The notes below the pieces were generated by a model that was not told the DNA's origin, did no database searches, and saw nothing but the letters and a program-made list of their open reading frames with translations. 10,688 nucleotides of DNA, from the IMG/VR virus record IMGVR_UViG_2695420822_000015; one strand, given 5' to 3'. Position numbers and translations under genes: made by a program. Each line of letters begins with the position of its first letter. Within the stretch, counting starts at the first letter, position 1. Origin of the DNA: a virus. Its lineage: Duplodnaviria; Heunggongvirae; Uroviricota; Caudoviricetes. Positions 1 through 10,688 of this stretch are shown here, piece after piece.

Positions 1-1
1 A

Positions 2-220
2 AGTCATCGGGCATTATCTGAACATAAAACACTACCAATAAGTTGGAGTCATTACCAAACGGTTGAAATGTATGCCGCTACTTACGGGTCCTGTAATCCT
101 CTGAATAAACCAGAGGGAAAAGATGATTTCGACAAAATTTACCGCTTCTTGGAGGACCGCTATATCAAAAGCTTAGAGGACGCAGGGATCAAATCCCCAG
201 TGAAGTCACCATTGTCCTGA
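2..220 (+). CDS. Hypothetical protein, 5'-truncated at window edge
   Basis: Frame is open from position 2 to TGA at 218-220 (73 codons, ...DDFDKIYRFLEDRYIKSLEDAGIKSPVKSPLS*). Absent from the ORF track because the only internal ATG (pos 68) gives under 60 aa. Convergent 32-bp overlap with 189..566(-). No recognisable family. Confidence 0.25.
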   Translation, partial: SHRALSEHKTLPISWSHYQTVEMYAATYGSCNPLNKPEGKDDFDKIYRFLEDRYIKSLEDAGIKSPVKSPLS

Positions 221-566
221 GAACTTGCAGAACGTCATGATCATAACTTCCATCCAAACCGCGACGGCGAATTGCTTCTCGTATTACCGGAAGCAGTTCG
301 CTGGAAATCTCGGTGCATATTTCACCTGATAATACGCTTGGCTCAAGTGAGAATATTGGTGAACTTACGGTCTTGGTCTCGACAGTTTCAGAGTCAGTGC
401 CAACATTATAAAGCTCAACGAAAGCGGTCTTGATTTTCCGGGCCAGATCTTTTGCTGGCTCGCTTGCAATATCTTTCCCGATTTCTCGCAGCACAGAATG
501 CAATGTATGAGCTGCTGTTTTCTGTACATCAGACGGTAAATCTTTAAATTCCATCGTCAGCCTCAT
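189..566 (-). CDS. Hypothetical phage early-left protein (125 aa)
   Basis: ATG start; its start overlaps the stop of the upstream gene 566..772 in an ATGA arrangement on the minus strand (translational coupling). Lies leftward of the OL-like operators as expected for a PL-type operon. No family recognised. Confidence 0.5.
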   Translation of the reverse strand: MRLTMEFKDLPSDVQKTAAHTLHSVLREIGKDIASEPAKDLARKIKTAFVELYNVGTDSETVETKTVSSPIFSLEPSVLSGEICTEISSELLPVIREAIRRRGLDGSYDHDVLQVLRTMVTSLGI

Positions 567-772
567 CAGTCAGTGTTTCTGGCTAACCAGCAACGCGCGC
601 CAGATTCGGTTTTAAACGTTTTGCTTTTGGTATACGTCATGGCGGTAAACGTTCCATCCTGGTTAGGGAACACGCCGCACACCAGAGATTCGTTGTTGCC
701 AAGATCGATAGTATCCATGCTGACCTCATTTCCCCTTAACGCCGGGGTGGCGGAACAAAAAACCTGCTGCAT
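566..772 (-). CDS. Hypothetical phage early-left protein (68 aa)
   Basis: ATG at 772-770; weak SD; coupled by ATGA to the downstream ORF. Not arginine-rich, so not an N-type antiterminator. No family recognised. Confidence 0.4.
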   Translation of the reverse strand: MQQVFCSATPALRGNEVSMDTIDLGNNESLVCGVFPNQDGTFTAMTYTKSKTFKTESGARCWLARNTD

Positions 773-898
773 AGTTAAAGATTGAACCCTGCCGTCATGT
801 TCTTACGCCTCGGGCTGGCTACTTAACCCCTGACCACTGTCTGGTAACTCGAAGTATTGCCCTGCATTCTGTGGGGCGGGGTGGGTTGACGCCTGAAA

Positions 899-943
899 CA
901 ATAGCATCATTATTTTTTTTGATGTAAATAGCATCGCTATTGT
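899..943. promoter_or_regulatory. OL-like operator pair (inverted repeats AATAGC-N3-GCTATT)
   Basis: Perfect 15-bp palindrome AATAGCatcGCTATT at 927-941 and a degenerate copy AATAGCatcATTATT at 900-914, centres 27 bp apart. Same motif recurs in the cI/cro intergenic region. TTGACG at 886-891 and minus-strand TTTACA (923-928) are possible -35 elements; -10 not confidently assigned. Confidence 0.5.
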
Positions 944-956
944 TTTTTGTTGGGGC

Positions 957-981
957 AAGAAAAAACCACCCTAAGGTGGTT
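957..981 (-). terminator. Rho-independent terminator ending the repressor-antitoxin-toxin operon
   Basis: Stem 964-970 (AACCACC) pairs with 975-981 (GGTGGTT), loop CTAA. On the minus-strand transcript the hairpin is followed by UUUUCUU. Sits 17 bp downstream of the parE-like stop (998). Confidence 0.6.
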
Positions 982-997
982 CTGTCGGCGGGAATAA

Positions 998-1288
998 TTA
1001 ACTGTTTTTGCCTGGATACTGTCTTCGAGAATGCACAATATTTACTACTTCTATGCTTGATGCTGTTACTCGGTAAAGGATGATGTAGTTAGGATGAGTT
1101 ACAATTTCACGAAGACCAAGAACTCGCTCGCTTGGAGGATACAGGTAAGGATGCTCTGTGAGCGGCAAAACGGATGTTTCAATTCGAATTTTCATTCTGC
1201 GTGCTGCCGCGGGATTTTCTTTAGCTATGTAGGCTACGATCTGGCGCAAATCATCACGAGCAGATGGTAGCCATAAAACGGGTAACAT
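998..1288 (-). CDS. parE: Type II toxin, RelE/ParE superfamily (ParE-like), 96 aa
   Basis: Sequence has the ParE-like pattern (N-terminal LWLPSARDDLRQIVAYIAKENPAAARR; core ILYRV...IEVVNIVHSRRQY). ATG overlaps the antitoxin stop as TAATG at 1286-1290. Third gene of a repressor-antitoxin-toxin operon, as in the paaR-paaA-parE modules described in E. coli O157:H7 prophages. Confidence 0.85.
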   Translation of the reverse strand: MLPVLWLPSARDDLRQIVAYIAKENPAAARRMKIRIETSVLPLTEHPYLYPPSERVLGLREIVTHPNYIILYRVTASSIEVVNIVHSRRQYPGKNS

Positions 1289-1482
1289 TATTCACCTCTG
1301 TGAGTTGCAGCAGCAATTTGGGCAATAATTTGTTCCATTTCCGCCATTACCTCATCATGCGGAATCGCCGGGCGGGGATCCGCGAGGCTTGCTGCTACTT
1401 TGGCCCGCAGCCATTCGTTGTAACTATTTTCTTGCTCAACTGTCTCAAATTCTGAAACCATTGGGGAAAGGACTGTACTCAT
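1288..1482 (-). CDS. Small acidic antitoxin partner of ParE (64 aa, PaaA-like)
   Basis: 64-aa acidic protein immediately upstream of, and overlapping, the toxin gene. SD GAGGAG about 9 nt upstream of ATG (1482-1480). Position and size fit a ParD/PaaA-type antitoxin; identity inferred from context, not from a recognised motif. Confidence 0.7.
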   Translation of the reverse strand: MSTVLSPMVSEFETVEQENSYNEWLRAKVAASLADPRPAIPHDEVMAEMEQIIAQIAAATHRGE

Positions 1483-1501
1483 TTTACATATCTCCTCTGA
1501 T

Positions 1502-2032
1502 TTAGGCGCGACGGCCTTTTTGTGCAGCTAACCACCGCGCAACCGTACGATCCATTGATTCTTTTTTATCTTTCATCTCCTGAAGCATGTGTTCTTGATC
1601 TTCTTTCGGAAAAGCTCTGAACGTATGGATTAAATCTCGTTCCATCGGCTCTACGGCAAACGGTAGTTCATCCTCTGTTTGTTCTGTGTCTGCTGGTAAT
1701 GCGACTATGTTATCTTGCTGTGGTTCTCGACAATACATCCTTGCAATTTGCAGCAAATCTACCATGTCTGGCCTGATTGACTCAGGGGGAACTTTCAGTA
1801 AGCCAGCAAACTTTAGAACAGCCTCAAGGTTTAGTGGGGTTTGACCATTTAGGTAGTGACTTACCGCCCCTTGTGTTGAAAACCCCATAATTTCCGCCGC
1901 ACGTTCCTGAGTCAATCCCAACTGAGATTTCTTTGCCATCCAGATTTCTTTCAGTCTTCTGGCGGCGTTGAGGTCGGTGTCTGACAATGATTTTCTTTTC
2001 ATACATCCAATTCTAATAAGATTGCTAATCAC
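1502..2032 (-). CDS. cI-like HTH (XRE-family) repressor lacking an S24 peptidase domain (PaaR-like)
   Basis: N-terminal HTH segment LGLTQERAAEIMGFSTQGAVSHYLNGQ resembles lambda cI/XRE DNA-binding domains. No Ala-Gly/Ser...Lys autocleavage motifs seen. Track start is GTG at 2032; ATG at 2002-2000 with almost no leader or SD is the more likely start (leaderless, as for lambda cI from PRM). 19-bp gap to the antitoxin gene. Confidence 0.8.
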   Translation of the reverse strand: MISNLIRIGCMKRKSLSDTDLNAARRLKEIWMAKKSQLGLTQERAAEIMGFSTQGAVSHYLNGQTPLNLEAVLKFAGLLKVPPESIRPDMVDLLQIARMYCREPQQDNIVALPADTEQTEDELPFAVEPMERDLIHTFRAFPKEDQEHMLQEMKDKKESMDRTVARWLAAQKGRRA

Positions 2033-2086
2033 TTTGAAATAGCATCACTATTTACTTTTAAAAATAACAGTGCTATTAATTATGCA
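2033..2086. promoter_or_regulatory. OR-like divergent operator/promoter region between cI-like and cro-like genes
   Basis: Two near-palindromes of the OL motif: AATAGCatcACTATT (2038-2052) and AATAACagtGCTATT (2063-2077), centres 25 bp apart. Candidate rightward promoter TTTACT (2051-2056), 17-bp spacer, TATTAA (2074-2079). Confidence 0.6.
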
Positions 2087-2113
2087 TTGGTAACACATCA
2101 CATAGGGCGGATT

Positions 2114-2377
2114 ATGAATCTTGGAGAATATTTGCATCATTTTCATATAACCCAGAGTTCATTTGCTGAGATTGTTGGCGCATCCCAAGGGATGGTCAGC
2201 CACGTTATAACGGGGCGTGCAAAACTTACAGGAGAAAAAATATTACGTTGGTGTGAAGCAACGGGATGGGTGGTGACCCCACATGAGATTGACAGTAAAA
2301 CCTACCCCAACCCAACTGACGGCTTGCCTGCTGAGTTTCAGGCTAACACACAACCATCGGCGGGGGTTGATTCATGA
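2114..2377 (+). CDS. Cro/YdaS-like HTH transcriptional regulator (87 aa)
   Basis: Divergent from the repressor gene. Short HTH protein (FAEIVGASQGMVSHVITGRAKLTGEKILRW). Track start is TTG 2087; ATG 2114 with upstream AGGGCGG is preferred. Stop overlaps the next gene start in ATGA (2374-2377). Confidence 0.8.
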   Translation: MNLGEYLHHFHITQSSFAEIVGASQGMVSHVITGRAKLTGEKILRWCEATGWVVTPHEIDSKTYPNPTDGLPAEFQANTQPSAGVDS

Positions 2378-2799
2378 AAATCAAGCATGAACACATCCGC
2401 ATGGCGATGAAAGCCTGGGCGCATCCGGACGGTGAAAAAGTTCCGGCAGCTGAAATAACCAGGGTTTATTTCGAACTGGGAATGACGTTTCCGGTTCTGC
2501 ATAACGACAGCAAGCACAACACGCTTTATCTCAACACCCAAAAGATTTTCCGTTGGCTGGATAAAGACACCCCTGACGCTGTTGAAAAAATTCAGGCGTT
2601 GTTACCTGCGATCGAAAGGGCAATGCCACCTCCGCTGGTGGCTCGAATGCGCAGCCACAGTTCAGCTTATTTTCGGGAACTGGTGGAGACGCATGAACGA
2701 CTGGTGAGAGACGCTGATGATTTTGTCGCAGTGGCAATCGCCGGTTTCAATCAGATGAACCGTGGTGGCCCGGCAGGAAATGCTGTGGCAGTACATTGA
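2374..2799 (+). CDS. YdaT-like (cII-position) protein, 141 aa
   Basis: Translationally coupled to the cro-like gene; GGGGG SD 7 nt upstream. Size and position match Rac-type ydaS-ydaT pairs. Family assignment from recalled similarity, unverified. Confidence 0.6.
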   Translation: MKIKHEHIRMAMKAWAHPDGEKVPAAEITRVYFELGMTFPVLHNDSKHNTLYLNTQKIFRWLDKDTPDAVEKIQALLPAIERAMPPPLVARMRSHSSAYFRELVETHERLVRDADDFVAVAIAGFNQMNRGGPAGNAVAVH

Positions 2800-2870
2800 C
2801 TGACAATAGCCATATCGAATCGCTCCCGGCAACTCGTGAGTAAAAAGATTCGGTATCAGAAGAGGTGAGT

Positions 2871-3935
2871 ATGGCTAACGCCTGGCTCAGATTATGGCAT
2901 GACATGCCAAATGACCCTAAGTGGCGAACAATTGCCAGGGTGTCAGGGCAGCCAATTGCAACAGTGATGGCAGTGTATATCCACCTCCTGGTGAGCGCGT
3001 CACGAAATGTCACGCGAGGTCACATTGATGTCACGACAGAAGATTTGGCAAGTGCGCTCGACGTGACAGAAGAGGTAATTGATTCAATTTTGCAGACGAT
3101 GCAGGGGCGGGTACTTGATGGTGATTTAATCACTGGATGGGAAAAACGCCAGGTGCTTAAAGAGGACAACGGCAATATTTCGCAAACCGCAAAATCTCCT
3201 GCAGAGCGCAAGAGGGCGCAGCGAGAGAGGGAAAGAAAGCGGGAACAAAATGGCGATTGTCACGGCGCGTCACGAAATGTCACGCACATGTCACGACGAG
3301 TCACGACAGATACAGATAAAGATACAGATAAAGAAGATCAAAACACTATGGTCCATGGCGTAAAAAACGCCACGAACCAGGCAGGGGATGTTCAGACCGT
3401 CAATCCTGGTCAGCCAGCAGGCTCGACACCGGAAGCCGATTCAGCGTATGCGCTGAAAGCCGATTCGGGCGCTGTGCAGCAGGTGATGACCGCAAGGCCG
3501 GAGCAATCACTCCAACTGCAGCAGCCTGAAGCCGATTCCGCCATTCAGCGGGAAGCCGATCGGGTAGCCCCGGAAAACACCGGGCAGCCTGTGGGACGAG
3601 TGGATTATCCGGATGTGTTCGAACAGGTCTGGCGGGAATACCCGTTGCGTGCCGGGGCAAACCCGAAGAAATCCGCATTCAGTGCCTGGAAGGCCAGATT
3701 GCGCGAGGGGGTGCCACCAGAGACCATGCTGGATGGTGTGAGGCGTTACGCGAGATACCTGGCGGCGACCGGGAAAGCGGGAACGGAATTTGTTCAGCGA
3801 GCGACGACGTTTTTTGGGCCGGACCGGAATTTTGAAAACCCCTGGTTGCTCCCGGTAAGCGGCACGAACAACCAGCGTTGTGTGAATCATATTTCTGAAC
3901 CGGATACCGAAATTCCGCCGGGATTCAGGGGGTGA
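2871..3935 (+). CDS. Phage replication initiator / replisome organiser (lambda O-like, YdaU-like)
   Basis: Lies directly upstream of the dnaC-like gene. Contains iteron clusters in its coding sequence, as lambda O contains ori. Low-complexity acidic/Pro/Gln-rich linker in the middle. SD GAGG 5 nt before ATG 2871 (track start GTG 2865). Confidence 0.7.
   Translation: MANAWLRLWHDMPNDPKWRTIARVSGQPIATVMAVYIHLLVSASRNVTRGHIDVTTEDLASALDVTEEVIDSILQTMQGRVLDGDLITGWEKRQVLKEDNGNISQTAKSPAERKRAQRERERKREQNGDCHGASRNVTHMSRRVTTDTDKDTDKEDQNTMVHGVKNATNQAGDVQTVNPGQPAGSTPEADSAYALKADSGAVQQVMTARPEQSLQLQQPEADSAIQREADRVAPENTGQPVGRVDYPDVFEQVWREYPLRAGANPKKSAFSAWKARLREGVPPETMLDGVRRYARYLAATGKAGTEFVQRATTFFGPDRNFENPWLLPVSGTNNQRCVNHISEPDTEIPPGFRG
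2999..3035. repeat. Iteron cluster 1: four GTCACG/GTCACA copies phased about 10 bp apart
   Basis: GTCACG at 2999, 3009, 3030 and GTCACA at 3019; an inverted copy CGTGAC at 3062-3067. Helical-turn phasing. Confidence 0.5.
3259..3332. repeat. Iteron cluster 2 (five GTCACG copies) plus 12-bp tandem repeat; candidate phage origin
   Basis: GTCACG at 3259, 3269, 3279, 3290, 3300 (spacing 10-11 bp). The 19-mer GCGTCACGAAATGTCACGC occurs at both 2997-3015 and 3268-3286. Immediately followed by perfect tandem GATACAGATAAA x2 (3309-3332), an A+T-rich patch. Confidence 0.55.
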
Positions 3936-3941
3936 TGTGGC

Positions 3942-4719
3942 ATGAAAAACATTGCGGCAGCCGGGGTTCTTGAACGTATTCACAGACTTGCACCACAGGG
4001 GGCGGTTCCACCGTACCGGACGGTGGAGGAGTGGCGGGGGNNNNNNNNNNNNNNNNNNNNNNNNNNNNGAATGGCAACTTGCTGAAGGACGAAAACGCAG
4101 CGAGGAGATTAACCGCCAGAATCGCCAGTTGCGGGTGGAAAAAATCCTGAATCGTTCGGGCATCCAGCCTCTGCACAGCAAATGCTCGTTTGCGAATTAT
4201 CAGGTGCAGAACGACGGGCAAAAATACGCGCTGAGCCAGGCCAAATCCATAGCTGACGAACTGATGACCGGGTGCACGAATTTTGTGTTCAGCGGTAAAA
4301 CCGGCACCGGGAAAAATCACCTTGCAGCGGCGATGGGTAACCGGCTGATGGCGAAGGGGCGCAGCGTGATTATCGTCACCGAGTCTGATGTCATGAGCGT
4401 GTTGCATGACAGCTACGACAACGGCAAATCCGGTGAAAAATTTTTACAGGAGCTTTGTGGTGTTGACCTGCTGGTCCTGGATGAAATTGGCATGCAGCGG
4501 GATACGAAAAACGAGCAGGTGGTACTGAACCAGATTGTTGATCGCCGGACGGCATCGTTACGCGGTGTGGGGATGCTGACAAATATTAACCATGCAGCGA
4601 TGAATACACTTCTCGGCGAGCGGGTGATGGATCGCATGGTCATGAACGGCGGGCGCTGGGTGAATTTTAACTGGGAGAGCTGGCGTCCGAATGTTAGCCA
4701 TTCGAGGGTTGTTAAGTAG
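3942..4719 (+). CDS. DnaC-like helicase loader (phage replication protein, AAA+/IstB-like), interrupted by assembly gap
   Basis: Walker A FSGKTGTGKNHLAAA, Walker B DLLVLDEIG; C-terminal LGERVMDRM closely resembles E. coli DnaC. ATG 3942 (MKNIAAAGVLERIHRL...) lies 6 nt after the O-like stop. The track's TTG 3952 start is in another frame and is an artefact of the 28-N gap. Confidence 0.8.
4041..4068. other. Assembly gap (28 N) inside the dnaC-like gene
   Basis: Run of N; gap length is not a multiple of 3, so the reading frame across it is undefined. Confidence 0.95.
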
Positions 4720-4750
4720 TTTCAGGAGGATTTATGGCGAAACCTTTTAN

Positions 4751-5154
4751 ATCACTTAGCGGCAGCTATCGGGAATCGCCTGCTGAAAGACGGTCAGACA
4801 GTGATTGTGGTTACCGTGGCTGATGTTATGAGCGCCCTGCACGCCAGCTATGACGACGGGCAGTCAGGCGAAAAATTTTTGCGGGAGCTGTGCGAAGTGG
4901 ATCTGCTGGTTCTTGATGAAATTGGCATTCAGCGCGAGACGAAAAACGAGCAGGTGGTGCTGCACCAGATTGTTGATCGCCGGACAGCGTCGATGCGCAG
5001 CGTGGGGATGCTGACAAACCTGAACTATGAGGTGATGAAAACATTGCTCGGCGAGCGGGTGATGGATCGCATGGTCATGAACGGCGGGCGCTGGGTGAAT
5101 TTTAACTGGGAGAGCTGGCGTCCGAATGTTAGCCATTCGAGGGTTGTTAAGTAG
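4751..5154 (+). pseudogene. Second, 5'-truncated copy of the dnaC-like 3' region (fragment; likely chimeric join)
   Basis: Starts in-frame at ..NHLAAAIGNRLLKDGQ.. right after a single N (4750) that interrupts the start of the downstream gene (ATGGCGAAACCTTTTA, 4735-4749). Segment 4610-4749 is identical to 5045-5184. Confidence 0.6.
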
Positions 5155-5168
5155 TTTCAGGAGGATTT

Positions 5169-5353
5169 ATGGCGAAACCTTTTACTCCCGAACAGCGGGA
5201 AGAACTGAAGACGCGAATTGTGGAACTCGTGCATCAGGACGGTCGGGTCACGATTCGGCAGTTGTCAGATGAAACAGGTATCAGTCGTGCGTCTGTCGGT
5301 CGCTTATGCATAGAACTGGTCGCAAGTGGTGATGTATATAATTCTGGCTACGG
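5169..5353 (+). CDS. Hypothetical winged-helix-like protein, 5' portion only (truncated at N 5354)
   Basis: RBS AGGAGGA then ATG 5169 (MAKPFTPEQREELKTRIVELV...GISRASVGRLCIELVASGDVYNSGY). Reading frame is broken at the N junction, where sequence switches into a dnaC fragment. Confidence 0.5.
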
Positions 5354-5354
5354 N

Positions 5355-5599
5355 TCCTGGATGAAATAGGCATTCAGCGGGAGACGAAAAACGAGCAGGT
5401 GGTATTGCACCAGATAATTGATCGCCGGACAGCATCACTGTGCAGTGTCGGGATGTTAACAAACCTGAATCATGCCGCAATGAGCACGCTTCTTGGTGAG
5501 AGGATTATGGACCGCATGACCATGAACGGTTGTCGGTGGGTGACGTTTAACTGGGATAGCTGGCGTTCAAATGTCAGCTTTCCGGGAGTTGTGAAGTAA
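5355..5599 (+). pseudogene. Third, 5'-truncated dnaC-like 3' fragment (divergent allele)
   Basis: Encodes ..LDEIGIQRETKNEQVVLHQIIDRRTASLCSVGMLTNLNHAAMSTLLGERIMDRMTMNGCRWVTFNWDSWRSNVSFPGVVK*. Begins immediately after N 5354. C-terminus differs from copies 1 and 2. Confidence 0.6.
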
Positions 5600-5620
5600 T
5601 TTTTGTTGGAGGATGTTTTA

Positions 5621-6346
5621 ATGGAAACTGTATTTGACGCACTGAAAGCACTGAAAAGAGCCTCTTCACATGTGGTGGCGTCCCGCCTTGGAATCAGCCG
5701 TGAAGATGCGGTCAACGAACTGTGGAAACTGAAGCGCCGTGGTGAAGCGGATAACAAGGGTTCGATGTGGTGGCTGATTCAGGCTGGTGAAAGTGAACCA
5801 GTGTCACCGGTACCGAAAGTGACAGCGCAAATGCTGACTGAGGCGATTGAACAACATGGCCCACAAACGGCGGATGAGCTGGCACTGATGTTCGGGATTA
5901 CCTCCCGCCGGGCGAATTCATCGCTGGCCATGGCAATCAGCAAAGGGCGTCTGATTCGCGTGAATCAGGGCGGTAAATTTCGGTACTGCATACCGGGCGC
6001 TGATTTACCGGCAGAGCCGAAAGCCGCATCCATAGCGGAAACGGATGGTAAAGTCTTTCCTCAGCCAGCAGGTGTTGCGTTACCGGTACAGGAAGCTGCA
6101 ACACAGGAAGAAATTAAAACAGAAACTGTGGCGGACATTGTGCAGTCGTTGCCATCGTTCACCGAAACGCAAGCGGATGACCTGGTTTTACCATCGCTGC
6201 ATATGGCAAACCGCGAACTGCGTCGGGCGAAAAGTCATGTCCAGAAGTGGGAGCGTGTCTGCGCCGCGTTGCGGGAGCTGAACAAGCACCGGGATATTGT
6301 TCGACAGATTGTCGATTCCTCCGGTCGTATTGTGTCGGAAAAGTGA
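5621..6346 (+). CDS. Hypothetical phage protein with two putative winged-helix-like segments (241 aa)
   Basis: GGAGGA SD 7 nt upstream of ATG 5621 (track start TTG 5603 is in the same frame). Follows the third dnaC fragment. Segments [22 protein letters not shown] and [31 protein letters not shown] resemble the wHTH of the neighbouring gene family. Confidence 0.6.
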
Positions 6347-6361
6347 TTGCCGGGGGCGCTT

Positions 6362-6501
6362 ATGGCAAAAGTATTTACACAGGAAGAGCGGGAAAAAATT
6401 AAGGGGCAGGTTGTTGAACTCGTACGCCAGAGTGGGCGCGAGACGTTACGACAACTGGAAGCTAAAACCGGGGCGACAAGATATTTAATAAGCGTTCTCG
6501 C
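6362..6501 (+). CDS. Hypothetical winged-helix-like protein, 5' portion (runs into 63-N gap)
   Basis: ATG 6362, MAKVFTQEEREKIKGQVVELVRQSGRETLRQLEAKTGATRYLISVL; paralogue of 5169..5353. Truncated by the gap. Confidence 0.5.
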
Positions 6502-6564
6502 NNNNNNNNNNNNNNNNNNNNNNNNNNNNNNNNNNNNNNNNNNNNNNNNNNNNNNNNNNNNNNN
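6502..6564. other. Assembly gap (63 N)
   Basis: Run of N. Confidence 0.95.
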
Positions 6565-6611
6565 ATTCTATTTCAGGAAGGAGTGTCCGTTAAACTCAGG
6601 CTACCTCAAAA

Positions 6612-6998
6612 ATTAAAGGGCAGGTTGTTGAACTTGTACGTCTGAGCGGTCGCGAGACGTTGCGGCAACTGGAAGCCAAGACAGGTGCGACAAGATATCT
6701 GATGAGTGTTCTCGCCAGAGAGCTGGTTGCCAGTGGCGATGTATACAACTCTGGTTACGGGTTATTCCCGTCTGAACAGGCGCGTAAGGACTGGCAAAAC
6801 GCCCGCAAAAAACTCTCAAGGGCAAATCTGAAGAAACCATCTGTGGTTGATCCTGACCTTATCTGGTCATTACCAGACGGAGAAATACGCCGCTACGACA
6901 GGCGTCAAAACATAATCTGTAGCGAGTGCCGGAAGAGTGAAGTTATGCAGCGTGTACCGGCTTTCTATCAGGGTGATTTTCAGGAGGCGGTACTGTGA
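6612..6998 (+). CDS. Hypothetical winged-helix-like protein, 3' portion (5' end lost at gap/junction)
   Basis: In-frame IKGQVVELVRLSGRETLRQLEAKTGATRYLMSVLARELVASGDVYNSGYGLFPSEQARKDW...QGDFQEAVL*. Overlaps the pre-gap copy by about 32 aa with substitutions (Q to L, I to M), so the two pieces are different alleles. In-frame stop at 6591-6593 upstream. Confidence 0.5.
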   Translation: MKGQVVELVRLSGRETLRQLEAKTGATRYLMSVLARELVASGDVYNSGYGLFPSEQARKDWQNARKKLSRANLKKPSVVDPDLIWSLPDGEIRRYDRRQNIICSECRKSEVMQRVPAFYQGDFQEAVL

Positions 6999-7055
6999 GT
7001 GAAATTAGCTATCAGGCTTCAATTACCGCTGGCATTCGCATCAAAGGAGAGGAGC

Positions 7056-7412
7056 ATGGAAATAAAACCAGAAGATGAGTTAAGCAATATTGTTTTATTT
7101 CCGGTAAAAGAGGATAACCCTCGTAATCAGGTTAATTTTCTTTATGAGCCATCGGAAAGACCATATTGCCATCACGCCTCTGTCCGGGTTGACGAAAAAG
7201 AGCGTCAGGTCCGCTGTAAAATTTGCGGTGCAGTTGTGGAGCCATTTGACTGGATGCTCTCTGTGGCGAAAAGAGAAACCAGACTGGCAGATGATGTAAG
7301 GCTCTTGCGCCAGGAGGAGCGGGAAAGGCGAAAAAATATAGAAAAGCTAATCCAGATTGAGCGTAATGCGAAAGCGCGGATACGCAGGGTGACAAAATAT
7401 AGCCCCGAATAA
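7056..7412 (+). CDS. Hypothetical zinc-ribbon-like protein (118 aa)
   Basis: Strong SD GGAGAGGAG before ATG 7056. Motif Y-C-H-H...(14)...C-K-I-C suggests a Cys/His metal-binding knuckle. Basic, Arg/Glu-rich C-terminal tail that may be helical. Confidence 0.55.
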   Translation: MEIKPEDELSNIVLFPVKEDNPRNQVNFLYEPSERPYCHHASVRVDEKERQVRCKICGAVVEPFDWMLSVAKRETRLADDVRLLRQEERERRKNIEKLIQIERNAKARIRRVTKYSPE

Positions 7413-7551
7413 TCAAGGTTATTTCTGGAAGTCAAGTCGTGAGTGATGAGGACTAACAAATACGGTGAACTCGATAAAGAGATTCAGGACGAACTGGAGG
7501 CCAGGAATGATTGACAAATCACCAAGTGAGTTCAGCTACAAAGATTTATTG

Positions 7552-7567
7552 TCATAACGGGTTATGA
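7552..7567. promoter_or_regulatory. Perfect 16-bp palindrome TCATAACGGGTTATGA upstream of the methyltransferase gene (possible operator)
   Basis: 7-bp arms around a 2-bp centre, 60 bp upstream of ATG 7627. A consensus -35 hexamer TTGACA lies at 7511-7516. Confidence 0.35.
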
Positions 7568-7626
7568 GATCGACTTGGTGCGTGATATTCTTCGGGCCAG
7601 TTTGCTATGCGCCACCATGAGATGTT

Positions 7627-9459
7627 ATGGCCCGCATGTTTGATACATTAGGATTTTACATTATGAATGTGCAACATTTTGATTTTTTTACAGATAATGA
7701 GTTTTCTAATCTGGAAAGATATCAAACTTGTAAAGCCATGGCCAAAGGTTATGCGGGCAATTACAAAACCGGGCAGTCAAGGTTGATGCATGCCCGCTCA
7801 TACTGCTTCAGCATCGTAGCTGCATATTGGGATACCCTTGCAAAAAAGCAAAAAAGCAGCATTAAAATGAGGGCAGTACCGCACACTGTTTACATAGAAG
7901 ACATTCCATGTGATGCACGCGAGCTCGCTGAACGAACAGGTGAGCTTATTGCTCAATTTCCGGCGGAGGACGCTGGATATCTGATTGGGTCAATTTATAC
8001 GGTAATGCTGCCATCCGCTTACCGTTCGGAATTGGGGGCTTACTATACCCCCCCACCTTTGGTAGCGCGTCTCTTGGACCTGGCTGAAAAGTCTGGTGTT
8101 GATTTTTCTCATGCATCGGTTATTGATCCTGCGTGTGGTGGCGGTGCATTTTTGGCACCAGTAGCCATTCGAATGTTAAAAAAAGACAAGGGGCCTTCCC
8201 CTGAATGGATGTTGAGGAGAATCAGTCGTCGTTTAAAGGGGATAGAAATCGATCCATTTGCGGCTTGGATGAGTTTGGTATTGCTCGAATCTGTACTAAT
8301 GCCACTATGTGTAAAGGTAAAACGTAGATTGCCTGAAGATACAATTATTGTTGCTGATGCGCTTCAGCAAGATAAATTTTCTGGTTATGATCTTGTGGTA
8401 GGGAATCCGCCTTACGGACGTGTCACTCTCGATATTAAAACGAGAGAAAAATATTCTCGTTCGTTATTTGGTCATGCAAATCTATATGGATTGTTCACCG
8501 ACTTAGCTGTTCGCATGGTTAAAGAGAAAACAGGAGTTATTGCATTTCTTACGCCAACTTCTTTTCTTGGTGGGCAGTATTTCACCGCGCTGCGAACCCT
8601 TTTGACCGAAAAAACTACTCCGTATGCCCTTGATTTCGTCACTGACAGGGATGGGGTCTTTGACGATGTTCTCCAGGAAACAATGTTGACAGCATTCAAG
8701 GCGGGAGAACATAAAGTTCGGGCCCAGGTATCCTCACTTGTCCCTAAGGGGTTGAACAAAGCAAAAATTGAGAAAATAGGTAATGTTGATATAGAAAAAG
8801 GTGGAGCAACGTGGCTTTTGCCACGCGTTAAAGATGATGCCTGTTTTCTTAATGTATTAAAACAGATGTCTACGCGTTTAGCTGATCTGGGATACTCAGT
8901 CTCTACAGGTCAGTTAGTCTGGAATCGATTTAAGTCGCAGTTGCGTACGACGAAAGGAAAAAATAGCTACCCATTAGTCTGGGCGGAATCAATAACTTCA
9001 GCTGGTTTTCGTTTTAGTGCAGACAGAAAAAATCATGTTCCCTATATCGATATAACCCCACAACAGGGTTTCCTTGTGACAAAATCTGAATGTGTGCTTG
9101 TTCAGCGGACAACATCGAAGGAACAGGACAGAAGGATTTTAGCGGCAATTTTACCTCAGGGATTTATAGATGAAACTGGTGGCGTAGTAGTTGAAAACCA
9201 TATTAATATTGTATATTCAAACGGATTGTTCTCTGCGGTTCGCCCTGATGTTATTGATATGCTACTTAATTCGCATGTTGTCGATCGGGCGTTCAGGTGT
9301 ATAAGCGGAAGTGTTGCTGTTTCGGCCTATGAATTGAATTCAATCCCGTTGCCTTCTCTGGAGCAGGTGATGGAGATTCAATCGTTAATTGATGCTGGCG
9401 TCCACAGACGGATTATTGAGAGAACTATCGCTGGTTTCTATGGAGTGATGATTGCATGA
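7627..9459 (+). CDS. N6-adenine DNA methyltransferase, gamma class (Eco57I/TaqI-like motif order)
   Basis: Motif X GAYYTPPPLVARLLDL, motif I IDPACGGGAFL (SAM binding), motif IV VVGNPPYG, in the order X-I-IV. About 130-aa N-terminal extension and about 280-aa C-terminal region (presumed target recognition). AT-rich codon usage. Start could be ATG 7627, 7636 or 7663. Confidence 0.85.
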   Translation: MARMFDTLGFYIMNVQHFDFFTDNEFSNLERYQTCKAMAKGYAGNYKTGQSRLMHARSYCFSIVAAYWDTLAKKQKSSIKMRAVPHTVYIEDIPCDARELAERTGELIAQFPAEDAGYLIGSIYTVMLPSAYRSELGAYYTPPPLVARLLDLAEKSGVDFSHASVIDPACGGGAFLAPVAIRMLKKDKGPSPEWMLRRISRRLKGIEIDPFAAWMSLVLLESVLMPLCVKVKRRLPEDTIIVADALQQDKFSGYDLVVGNPPYGRVTLDIKTREKYSRSLFGHANLYGLFTDLAVRMVKEKTGVIAFLTPTSFLGGQYFTALRTLLTEKTTPYALDFVTDRDGVFDDVLQETMLTAFKAGEHKVRAQVSSLVPKGLNKAKIEKIGNVDIEKGGATWLLPRVKDDACFLNVLKQMSTRLADLGYSVSTGQLVWNRFKSQLRTTKGKNSYPLVWAESITSAGFRFSADRKNHVPYIDITPQQGFLVTKSECVLVQRTTSKEQDRRILAAILPQGFIDETGGVVVENHINIVYSNGLFSAVRPDVIDMLLNSHVVDRAFRCISGSVAVSAYELNSIPLPSLEQVMEIQSLIDAGVHRRIIERTIAGFYGVMIA

Positions 9460-10538
9460 ATCTGCCTGTTGTTCCCCCATTGAATGTTATCCGGGAAAGA
9501 TTACAATTAATTTTCCCTGAAGGGACTGAGAATCGTGGATATTTAATTCGGGAAATAGCTGCAAAAACAATTTTTGTCATGTTTTATGCTGGTGCGGTTG
9601 AGGGGCTGGGGCGATGGATAAGGCCCAGCCAGGTTGTAAGTATGGGAGATTCGCAGGCTGCTCTTACTGATGATGCGTCCAGAGAAAGCTGGGTAAAGAT
9701 GACTTTCTCTAAACAAAAGATAAGGCCTGCTGATGCATGGTATGCGGAAAATACGCGTGAGCCAATACGTGATGAAACTATAAAAAATGGCCTAATACCT
9801 TGCAATGCAATTGTTGAGCGTAAAGGTATACCCACCACATCCTCTCGTCCTCGTTACAGTTTGAATCGCTCTTTTGCAGCACTCTTTGATGCCGGGCTTG
9901 AAGGAGATTCGCTGCTGAGTGCAATAAGTTCCTGGCAAGAAAATCATTTGAACAAAGCCGCTCTTGCTAGGTTGCGTTTATTGAAATCAGGGGCAGTGAT
10001 TGCTGCTGATGCCGTAGTCGTCACTTTCCCAAATGGAGAGAAGAGAACTTTAGCTCCGGGCCCGTCAAGTACAATAGCTAAGGCCGTCATCGAAGTTTTT
10101 GCTCCTAATTTTCTTAAGAATCCAACTGTGCTCTGGTTGTCTGAATCCGGGAATAAAGTTGTTGCTCAGGATGATGTATTGGCAAAAGCATTGGGGCTGA
10201 ATATTGATGCCTCAAAAGCACTTCCAGATATTATTTTGATTGATTTGGGAGAGGACCGAACGGGTTCGGACATGCTTGTAGTTTTCACTGAAGTAGTTGC
10301 GACAGATGGGCCTATAAACAGGGAACGAAAAGTTACTCTCACTCATTTGGCTATTGACGCTGGGTTCAGCGAGAAAAATCTTGCATTCCTTACGGCATTT
10401 ATGGACAGAAGTGCTCTGCCTTTTAAAAAGGCAATACCAGAATTGGCGTGGGGATCTTATGCATGGTTTGCTTCTGAACCGGAGCACTTAATTGATCTTC
10501 GGGATGGTTATCCGGTAAAGATCAGCCAGAGAAAATGA
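9456..10538 (+). CDS. MTase-coupled partner protein (360 aa); putative restriction endonuclease or other effector, family unassigned
   Basis: ATG overlaps the MTase stop (ATGA 9456-9459); GGAG about 10 nt upstream. Same AT-rich composition as the MTase. No Walker motif, HNH or clear PD-(D/E)xK triad identified by eye; candidate acidic cluster IDLGED...FTEVV. Confidence 0.55.
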   Translation: MNLPVVPPLNVIRERLQLIFPEGTENRGYLIREIAAKTIFVMFYAGAVEGLGRWIRPSQVVSMGDSQAALTDDASRESWVKMTFSKQKIRPADAWYAENTREPIRDETIKNGLIPCNAIVERKGIPTTSSRPRYSLNRSFAALFDAGLEGDSLLSAISSWQENHLNKAALARLRLLKSGAVIAADAVVVTFPNGEKRTLAPGPSSTIAKAVIEVFAPNFLKNPTVLWLSESGNKVVAQDDVLAKALGLNIDASKALPDIILIDLGEDRTGSDMLVVFTEVVATDGPINRERKVTLTHLAIDAGFSEKNLAFLTAFMDRSALPFKKAIPELAWGSYAWFASEPEHLIDLRDGYPVKISQRK

Positions 10539-10688
10539 CCAAAGTTTGATATCCGCCACGCCCTGAAGGATGGGGGTTTTACGGTGCACTGGATAAAAAA
10601 TCGGTTTCATAGATTTGCCCACCGTGGTATACGCCTGCGATAAAAACTTTATTGTCATCAACGGCAAAAGCAATAATTGTTCTGTGGC
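10488..10688 (-). CDS. Hypothetical ORF, 5' end beyond window; doubtful
   Basis: Minus-strand frame is open from the window edge to the stop at about 10488. It overlaps the 3' end of the 9456..10538 gene by 51 bp (convergent). No family recognised. Confidence 0.2.
   Translation of the reverse strand, partial: ATEQLLLLPLMTIKFLSQAYTTVGKSMKPIFYPVHRKTPILQGVADIKLWSFSLADLYRITIPKIN

Follow-up and report, generated by a model that had tools for sequence, protein, structure and literature searches.

The 10,688-nt stretch of viral DNA analysed here (IMG/VR record IMGVR_UViG_2695420822_000015, referred to below as the window) appears to carry a pile-up of broken replication genes. The 3' part of a dnaC-like gene is found three times in register (4468–4722; 4903–5157, 91%; 5348–5602, 79%), and parts of the DUF977 gene stand on both sides of a run of 63 N. 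This raises the question of whether the arrangement belongs to the biology of the element or to its assembly. The window is a single scaffold, from IS1 to IS1, of a lambdoid (Rac-type) prophage remnant of Shigella sonnei, its right end being 3 nt short of the IS1 that comes next in S. sonnei Ss046, and the pile-up is no biological feature, the true locus being ordinary. Judged by how it compares with genomes other than that of the source strain, this short-read scaffold of a draft genome was very probably assembled wrongly, with short contigs from other prophage remnants stitched into one S. sonnei locus. Its segments are collected in Table 1, where S denotes the true locus, F2 a second remnant, X a locus with an IS600-truncated DUF977 gene, and F1 a further dnaC allele.

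Table 1. Segments, gaps and joins of the window
Positions	Feature	Strand	Basis or remark
1–56	IS1, terminal 56 nt	+	left boundary of scaffold
2865–3935	O-like "phage replisome organizer" gene, S locus	+	99.95% to S. sonnei chromosomes; RefSeq product name on E. coli homologues
3942–4038	S-locus dnaC-like gene, first 32 codons	+	identical to Ss046 up to 4038
4039–4068	unsupported GG (reference AA) and 28-N gap	.	comparison with Ss046
4069–4457	S-locus dnaC-like gene, middle, with Walker A GKTGTGKN	+	identical to Ss046; Pfam IstB_IS21, Bac_DnaA
4411–4457	hidden chimeric join without N, S to F1	+	47-nt run exactly common to S and F1 alleles; contig switches allele
4458–4749	F1-allele dnaC-like 3' end, intergenic spacer, first 16 nt of DUF977 gene	+	foreign to this locus
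4750	single-N scaffold join	.	junction pattern absent from all fetched loci
4751–5353	second-remnant contig (F2)	+	ydaV/dnaC-like 3' 404 nt (4751–5154, without Walker A); DUF977 codons 1–61 (5169–5353)
5354	single-N scaffold join	.	junction pattern absent from all fetched loci
5355–6501	true S contig	+	dnaC-like 3' 245 nt (5355–5599), complete DUF1627 (5621–6346), DUF977 codons 1–46 (6362–6501)
6502–6564	63-N scaffold gap; the contig ends on its two sides are unrelated	.	85% identity over the 108 homologous positions at which the flanks overlap
6565–6608	IS600 (IS3 family), last 44 nt, ending ...CCTCA	+	terminus match; full element annotated IS600
6609–6937	5'-truncated DUF977 (from codon 12), X locus	+	X locus: IS600, truncated DUF977, IS1, beside ompW
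6922–6937	hidden chimeric join without N, X to S	+	16-nt run common to X and S alleles; contig returns to S locus
6938–10688	rest of true S locus	+	DUF977 3' end (to 6998), zinc-ribbon ORF (7056–7412), N6-methyltransferase (7627–9459), BsuBI/PstI-family endonuclease (9456–10538)

The true locus and the repeated dnaC-like segment

Four blocks of the window (1–4038, 4069–4457, 5355–6501, and 6922–10688) match the true locus at 99.95–100%. The first corresponds to positions 1292–5329 of the Ss046 reference interval at 99.95% identity, the second to 5329–5717 (389/389 identical), and the third to 5735–6881 (1147/1147), while from 6922 to the end of the window only two mismatches to Ss046 are present. 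By this alignment, the real locus would read 1–4038, 4070–4457, 17 missing nucleotides, 5355–6501, 206 missing nucleotides, and 6922–10688, adding up to 9,563 nt, which is also the length of the Ss046 interval. Each kind of gene is present in it once and intact. In finished S. sonnei chromosomes there is a single series comprising the O-like gene, the dnaC-like gene, DUF1627, DUF977, the zinc-ribbon ORF, the methyltransferase, and the endonuclease. In all eight S. sonnei places inspected (seven in records of Mb scale, one on a draft contig of 9.8 kb; 20 similar places exist besides), the same single series follows the O-like gene, with a DUF1627 protein of 241 residues and an ORF of 118 residues after DUF977, individual genes being split or shortened in some records.

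The order and families of the genes in the true locus are the same as in the Rac-type lambdoid replication module (cro/ydaS – ydaT – O-like organizer – ydaV/dnaC-like loader – [DUF1627] – DUF977). The S. sonnei version is an IS1-flanked remnant with a PaaA2–ParE pair, as well as a type II restriction-modification pair, and there is nothing unusual about it. A Pfam search of the contig 5355–6501 matched DUF1627 (E = 5.9e-93) and also DUF977, and the O-like gene at 2865–3935 gave no Pfam match. Other S. sonnei drafts fail at this place too; in CWVT01000151, the O-like and dnaC-like genes are interrupted by N gaps of 377 and 230.

The dnaC-like segments at 4069–4716 (E = 1e-17) and 4753–5151 (E = 5e-13) match PF01695 (IstB_IS21) / PF00308 (Bac_DnaA). 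The 80-residue fragment encoded by 5357–5596 has no Pfam match alone, and is 100% identical to the C terminus of the S. sonnei dnaC-like protein. The Walker A motif, GK(T/P)GTGKN, is found only within 4069–4719, with the fragments 4751–5154 and 5355–5599 beginning downstream of it. These two had been described in the first-pass annotation as 5'-truncated dnaC fragments lying right after single Ns, which is correct, and both are open to their stop codons. The "full dnaC-like gene" named there before them is not full, since the 28-N run lies inside the gene and the part that follows the gap is a hybrid of two alleles. The repeat that had been given as 4610–4749 and 5045–5184 is nearly right, but exact identity extends only over 4612–4749 and 5047–5184 (138 nt), the 140-nt span having one mismatch at 4611/5046.

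Three copies that are in register and have open reading frames might be expected from a real tandem partial duplication of the dnaC–DUF977 junction in a decaying prophage, in which case the Ns would be ambiguous base calls. However, the paralogous copies agree with one another at 77–91%, apart from islands of exact identity, and each matches a different, distant locus at 100%, which is not what duplication produces. The breakpoints noted in the first pass all fall on N characters, and the DUF977 parts that flank the 63 N overlap by 108 homologous positions, an overlap that cannot arise from a simple gap or from an IS insertion. Among the finished genomes of S. sonnei and E. coli that were examined, none has the arrangement; it was found at none of the places among 5,426 complete E. 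coli genomes, where the matching places are ~1 kb shorter than the query. A real duplication, which the first reading had already dismissed, and against which the single dnaC-like – DUF1627 – DUF977 series of finished S. sonnei chromosomes also speaks, has thus virtually no chance of being the explanation.

Origin of the blocks foreign to the locus

The block 4751–5353 is identical (603/603) to another remnant located 0.9–1.1 Mb from the S locus in the same S. sonnei chromosomes, the S and F2 loci being found at 2.20 and 3.09 Mb in CP104423, and at 4.07 and 2.97 Mb in CP032523. It is also 99.8% identical to E. coli FDAARGOS_943 at 2.087 Mb. The gene of this allele is named ydaV in RefSeq and is naturally split in S. 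flexneri, so the ORF at 4801–5151 of the window is on record.

The block 6565–6937 is in turn identical (373/373) to S. sonnei contigs carrying an island of IS600, truncated DUF977, and IS1, and the genuine truncated ORFs of this locus are recorded as proteins of S. sonnei 53G and 3226-85. The 43 nt immediately following the 63-N gap match 67 stretches, the flanks of which diverge immediately past the terminal A. This terminus is identical to that of IS600 copies, ends in CA, has unrelated flanks, and belongs to an element annotated as IS600 at 99% identity, the transposase genes of which are absent from the window. The IS600 end, identical over 6565–6608 to the known terminus, had been overlooked in the first-pass annotation. 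The same junction in S. sonnei truncates DUF977 at codon 12, and the insertion is a property of the locus beside ompW, not of the locus of the window; the 63-N gap therefore adjoins a genuine IS600 insertion of another locus. No IS600/DUF977 junction was found in a scan of viral contigs. Two other interpretations of this region were rejected. The 43 nt, with dozens of copies in a few genomes and a match at a Streptomyces contig end, were considered as a sequencing adapter, but are the IS600 terminus. The segments 4411–4749 and 6565–6937 were considered as two sides of one IS600-interrupted locus, but the DUF977 start ahead of the join is of the MAKPF type and the DUF977 part after IS600 of the MAKVF/KIKGQ type, and the layout of the X locus, with IS600 and then unrelated genes upstream, also disagrees.

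The segment 4411–4749 is identical (339/339) to E. coli FDAARGOS_943 at 1.593 Mb, as well as to S. flexneri contigs, and only ~80% identical to Ss046. The F1 dnaC allele occurs mainly in S. flexneri and in a few complete genomes of E. coli. Almost every exact match of its C terminus is a partial protein from S. flexneri (clusters with 89, 51, and 8 members); another S. flexneri cluster, with 589 members, is of the F1 type over the part covered. Since the allele is rare under the S. sonnei label, with two records found, one of them an 827-bp orphan contig of a draft, its presence in the window needs either a strain-specific prophage or contamination. On one alternative reading, the scaffold is artefactual all the same, but received its F1 allele from a second organism (S. 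flexneri or an E. coli with this allele) by cross-contamination or in a mixed culture. The distribution of the alleles points in this direction because, unlike F1, the S dnaC-like, F2 dnaC-like, and S DUF977 genes are each found on about 1000 or more S. sonnei-labelled contigs; the truncated X ORFs, although on far fewer contigs, are likewise S. sonnei-labelled. Against it, lambdoid prophages move among Shigella lineages, making a strain-specific extra prophage equally possible, and the other three alleles were all traced to S. sonnei chromosomes. We therefore consider contamination a possible, but somewhat doubtful, source of this one allele.

Gaps and joins

Four runs of N are present in the window (4041–4068, 28 N; 4750, 1 N; 5354, 1 N; and 6502–6564, 63 N). 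At each of them the window breaks collinearity with finished S. sonnei chromosomes, so chance is not an issue. The 28-N gap hides no sequence, since 1 nt of the reference (GAGTGGCGGG/AATGGCAA) is common to both of its flanks, and the flanks of the 63-N gap are collinear with nothing; on these grounds the view of the N runs as masked real sequence was rejected. The 63-N gap separates two non-identical DUF977 copies, as had been described, with the 5' parts 6394–6501 and 6608–6715 being 85% alike. A single N was said to cut the first codons of the downstream gene; this holds at 4750, where DUF977 is cut after 5 codons, but not at 5354, where the cut comes after 61. A single N is the mark that scaffolders use for a negative gap left unresolved; a literature check for this convention found no usable statement. 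All of the breakpoints described earlier do lie at N characters, but two more chimeric joins, at 4411–4457 and 6922–6937, have no N at all.

None of the four junction sequences of the window is found in any of the 109 fetched loci, whereas every parental version is present. A 58-mer across the join at 4411–4457 occurs in 0/109 loci and its parental versions in 8 and 9; for a 26-mer across the join at 6922–6937 the corresponding numbers are 0/109, and 7 and 8. Cluster representatives (best match 96%) could not show the absence of a hybrid protein, and exact look-ups were therefore used; by these, neither hybrid protein, DnaC-like or DUF977, as reconstituted from the window, is present among ~15 billion proteins. 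The ORFs at 6660–6995 and 5399–5596, which are peculiar to this scaffold, are not on record either. Another, different S/F2 hybrid protein is on record, from a 1.1-kb S. sonnei draft contig. The warning that the gene order should not be trusted is borne out, as 4751–5353 and 6565–6937 belong to other loci and the junctions are found in no fetched locus.

Both joins without N could in principle be real, recombination or gene conversion between prophage remnants having created a dnaC-like gene that is part S and part F1 and a DUF977 gene that is part X and part S, with only the N-linked pieces misplaced. Both switches lie within runs of exact identity (47 and 16 nt), where homologous recombination would occur, and lambdoid modules are mosaic, as exemplified by the locus of FDAARGOS_943, in which O, dnaC, DUF977, methyltransferase, and endonuclease follow each other without DUF1627. 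Nevertheless, S. sonnei has been sampled thousands of times and neither hybrid protein is among the ~15 billion searched. In addition, the same scaffold holds the middle piece of the S locus (5355–6501, 100%), so an unrecombined locus exists in the sample, and the X part brings along its IS600 end, just as in the separate X locus, and is therefore the contig of that locus. Real conversion at these two joins is, on this evidence, highly improbable.

A possible course of the misassembly and its consequences

The preferred reading remains that of a wrongly assembled scaffold. It agrees with the first-pass annotation, which had proposed an assembly chimera of near-identical paralogous prophages, in that the blocks trace to different loci, but the paralogues are not near-identical (77–91%) and one of the four alleles may be contamination. 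How the software produced the joins we infer as follows. A segment of the lambdoid replication module (a dnaC/ydaV-like gene followed by DUF977) is present in the sample in at least four diverged copies, namely S, the true locus; F2, the second remnant ~1 Mb away; X, the IS600-truncated DUF977 beside ompW; and F1, the dnaC allele found mainly in S. flexneri. The copies have islands of exact identity in common, at or near which the contigs would have broken. The assembler or scaffolder would then have fused S to F1 over the common run at 4411–4457, and X to S over that at 6922–6937. A run of 16 nt is shorter than the usual de Bruijn k-mers, and the X-to-S merge needs overlap-merging during scaffolding or gap closing. 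Single-N joins would have chained the F2 contig (603 nt) and the S contig (1147 nt) behind, and the two sized gaps (28 and 63 N), which match no real sequence, would have been inserted. The truncated dnaC fragments are contig ends rather than genes, and biologically inert.

This course resembles the chimeric-scaffold or collapsed-repeat misassembly of short-read drafts in the breakpoints at gap characters, the short contigs (603–1147 nt) ending at or near paralogue repeats, the unreal gap sizes, the IS1 boundaries, and the collinearity of each block with a separate locus in finished genomes. It differs in that two joins of the window are seamless, without N, and that the genome may not be the source of one of the alleles.

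The value of these results is practical only. The gene order, the gene counts, and the calls of "truncated dnaC" and "split DUF977" within 4039–6937 should be discarded, and cutting the scaffold at its Ns is no repair, because two of the chimeric joins are seamless. Analyses of pan-genomes, prophage types, or recombination that use this record would count hybrid alleles and pseudogenes that do not exist. If the seamless switches were true conversions, they would represent very recent recombination between remnants ~1 Mb apart, with crossovers in runs down to 16 nt. As it stands, the case illustrates how short-read assembly of IS-rich Shigella may be defeated by diverged paralogous lambdoid modules that have short exact islands in common.

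Block structure and provenance

Four runs of N divide the window into five blocks (1-4040, 4069-4749, 4751-5353, 5355-6501 and 6565-10688), across which a dnaC-like 3′ part recurs three times in register (4468-4722, 4903-5157 at 91% and 5348-5602 at 79%) and a DUF977 5′ part twice (6394-6501 and 6608-6715, 85%). The repeats described in the first-pass annotation are confirmed, and Pfam backs the gene families: IstB_IS21 and Bac_DnaA for the dnaC-like pieces, DUF1627 for 5621-6343, and DUF977, with a winged-HTH signal, for the gene previously called winged-helix. The exact repeat reported there is real, with 4612-4749 identical to 5047-5184 over 138 nt, although the 140 nt originally quoted include one mismatch. 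The main correction concerns the first dnaC-like gene, which had been taken as full and is in fact broken by the 28-N run.

Searching for exact copies of the DUF1627 protein pointed to Shigella sonnei chromosomes, among them CP000038 (strain Ss046), to whose locus (S; ref coordinates below) the window blocks were aligned. Three further sources account for the remaining stretches. F1, a dnaC allele, is found in S. flexneri contigs and, at 1.593 Mb, in E. coli FDAARGOS_943, and the switch from S to F1 falls in a 47-nt run common to both alleles; as 4069-4457 is S while 4411-4749 is F1, block 2 is a hybrid. F2 is a second S. sonnei prophage remnant (ydaV, DUF977, hypothetical, QueH, hok), positioned 0.9-1.1 Mb from S on the same chromosomes (CP104423, 2.20 vs 3.09 Mb; CP032523, 4.07 vs 2.97 Mb). 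In X, a third S. sonnei locus, IS600 cuts a DUF977 gene at codon 12, and next come an IS1 and, further on, ompW; block 5 passes from X to S inside the common run 6922-6937. The stretches 4458-4749, 4751-5353 and 6565-6921 are foreign to the S locus.

Features of the window, with their sources and coordinates
Feature	Coordinates	Strand	Remarks
IS1, last 56 nt	1-56
S-locus match	1-4038		99.95% identity to Ss046
ParE	998-1288	minus	96 aa; Pfam marks on same-sized counterpart gene in database locus L071
PaaA2	1288-1482	minus	64 aa; Pfam marks on same-sized counterpart gene in L071
N run	4041-4068		28 N
S-locus match	4069-4457		389/389 identical to Ss046
F1 match	4411-4749		100% identity
N run	4750		1 N
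F2 match	4751-5353		603/603 identity
N run	5354		1 N
S-locus match	5355-6501		1147/1147 identical to Ss046
N run	6502-6564		63 N
X match	6565-6937		100% identity
IS600 end	6565-6608
S-locus match	6922-end		two mismatches to Ss046
N6-methyltransferase, Eco57I-type domain	7627-9459
BsuBI/PstI-family endonuclease	9456-10538		4-nt overlap with methyltransferase gene

Junctions, gaps and a proposed mechanism of assembly

All four junction sequences are missing from the 109 loci compared, whereas each parental version is present in 7-9 of these loci. The two proteins implied by the joins that carry no N, an S/F1 hybrid DnaC-like protein and an X/S hybrid DUF977 protein, were reconstituted, and neither is found among ~15 billion proteins. 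Contigs with an S. sonnei label that encode the S dnaC-like, F2 dnaC-like and S DUF977 proteins number ~1000 or more in each case, and genuine truncated X ORFs are on record, such as SS53G_1369 of S. sonnei 53G. Real recombination at these two joins is unlikely, since the scaffold also contains the unrecombined middle piece of S, and the X piece retains its own IS600 end. The feature is, as first proposed, an assembly artefact.

Neither of the two longer N runs marks a genuine gap. The block preceding the 28-N run ends in ...GAGTGGCGGG plus two unsupported bases and the next begins with GAATGGCAA; these ends overlap by one base in the reference, and the 28 Ns thus represent no sequence at all. 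The flanks of the 63-N run span the same 108 homologous DUF977 positions (85% identity), which rules out a true gap or an IS insertion there. The window lacks two pieces of S, one of 17 nt (ref 5718-5734) and one of 206 nt (ref 6882-7087); once they are put back, the S blocks total 9,563 nt, exactly the length of the reference interval.

The paralogues are 77-91% alike, yet they share exact islands of 47 nt (S/F1), 265 nt (F1/F2, running from the dnaC 3′ end into DUF977) and 29 and 16 nt (S/X), and the contig ends fall in or beside them. Paired-end links through the islands would allow a scaffolder to chain small contigs of other loci into the S scaffold. Scaffolders such as SSPACE join adjacent contigs where these overlap briefly and place a single N where an expected overlap is missing. 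F1 is abundant in S. flexneri, with only two S. sonnei-labelled records found, including an orphan contig of 827 bp; its presence in the window may reflect contaminating reads or an additional prophage peculiar to the strain.

The S locus and its relatives

In complete E. coli genomes the order is replisome organizer, ATP-binding protein (ydaV/dnaC-like), in some cases DUF1627, DUF977 and a hypothetical gene, each in single copy, and the matching places are ~1 kb shorter than the query. The S. sonnei order (IS1 ... ParE, PaaA2, repressor, cro-like, YdaT, O-like, dnaC-like, DUF1627 of 241 aa, DUF977, a 118-aa ORF, methyltransferase, BsuBI/PstI-type endonuclease, IS1) is identical in each of the eight places listed, seven on Mb-scale records and one on a 9.8-kb draft contig, and in 20 similar places beyond these, with single genes split or shortened in some records. 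The window starts in IS1 and stops at 10688, 3 nt short of the left end of another IS1 in Ss046; the whole is therefore an IS1-to-IS1 scaffold.

The PaaA2-ParE toxin-antitoxin pair adjoins the prophage repressor, and the remnant also has a type II restriction-modification pair as cargo. The O-like replisome-organizer gene contains an exact 21-nt direct repeat, GCGCGTCACGAAATGTCACGC, at 2995-3015 and 3265-3285 (270 nt apart), as well as 36-nt imperfect repeats at 3429-3464 and 3525-3560; they could represent iterons or an origin, similar to the case of lambda O, or simply a coding motif that is repeated.

Short-read assembly has repeatedly run into difficulty at the S locus. In another, independent draft scaffold of this locus from S. 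sonnei (CWVT01000151.1), N gaps of 377 nt (3552-3928) and 230 nt (4095-4324) lie in the O-like and dnaC-like genes. Another hybrid DnaC-like protein (P0016), from a 1,123-bp S. sonnei draft contig, is identical to the S allele over residues 1-120 and to F2 thereafter, and that contig is probably an independent chimera of the same paralogues. In six S. flexneri loci (L104-L109, gene 6001-6354) the F2-type ydaV is naturally broken into two ORFs (113 and 117 aa), so that a truncated dnaC-like ORF with the same sequence as window 4801-5154 is genuine in those loci, though its cause is different. A variant of the restriction-modification-bearing S remnant is present in E. coli FDAARGOS_943 (1.592-1.595 Mb); it differs from S in lacking DUF1627 and in having a frameshifted, F1-type dnaC-like gene, and represents a natural mosaic of the modules confused by the assembler of the window.

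The useful outcome is the corrected structure, along with the caution that two of the chimeric joins (4411-4457 and 6922-6937) contain no N. The locus beneath the artefact is an ordinary S. sonnei prophage remnant that has already been sampled well, and it offers no biological novelty.
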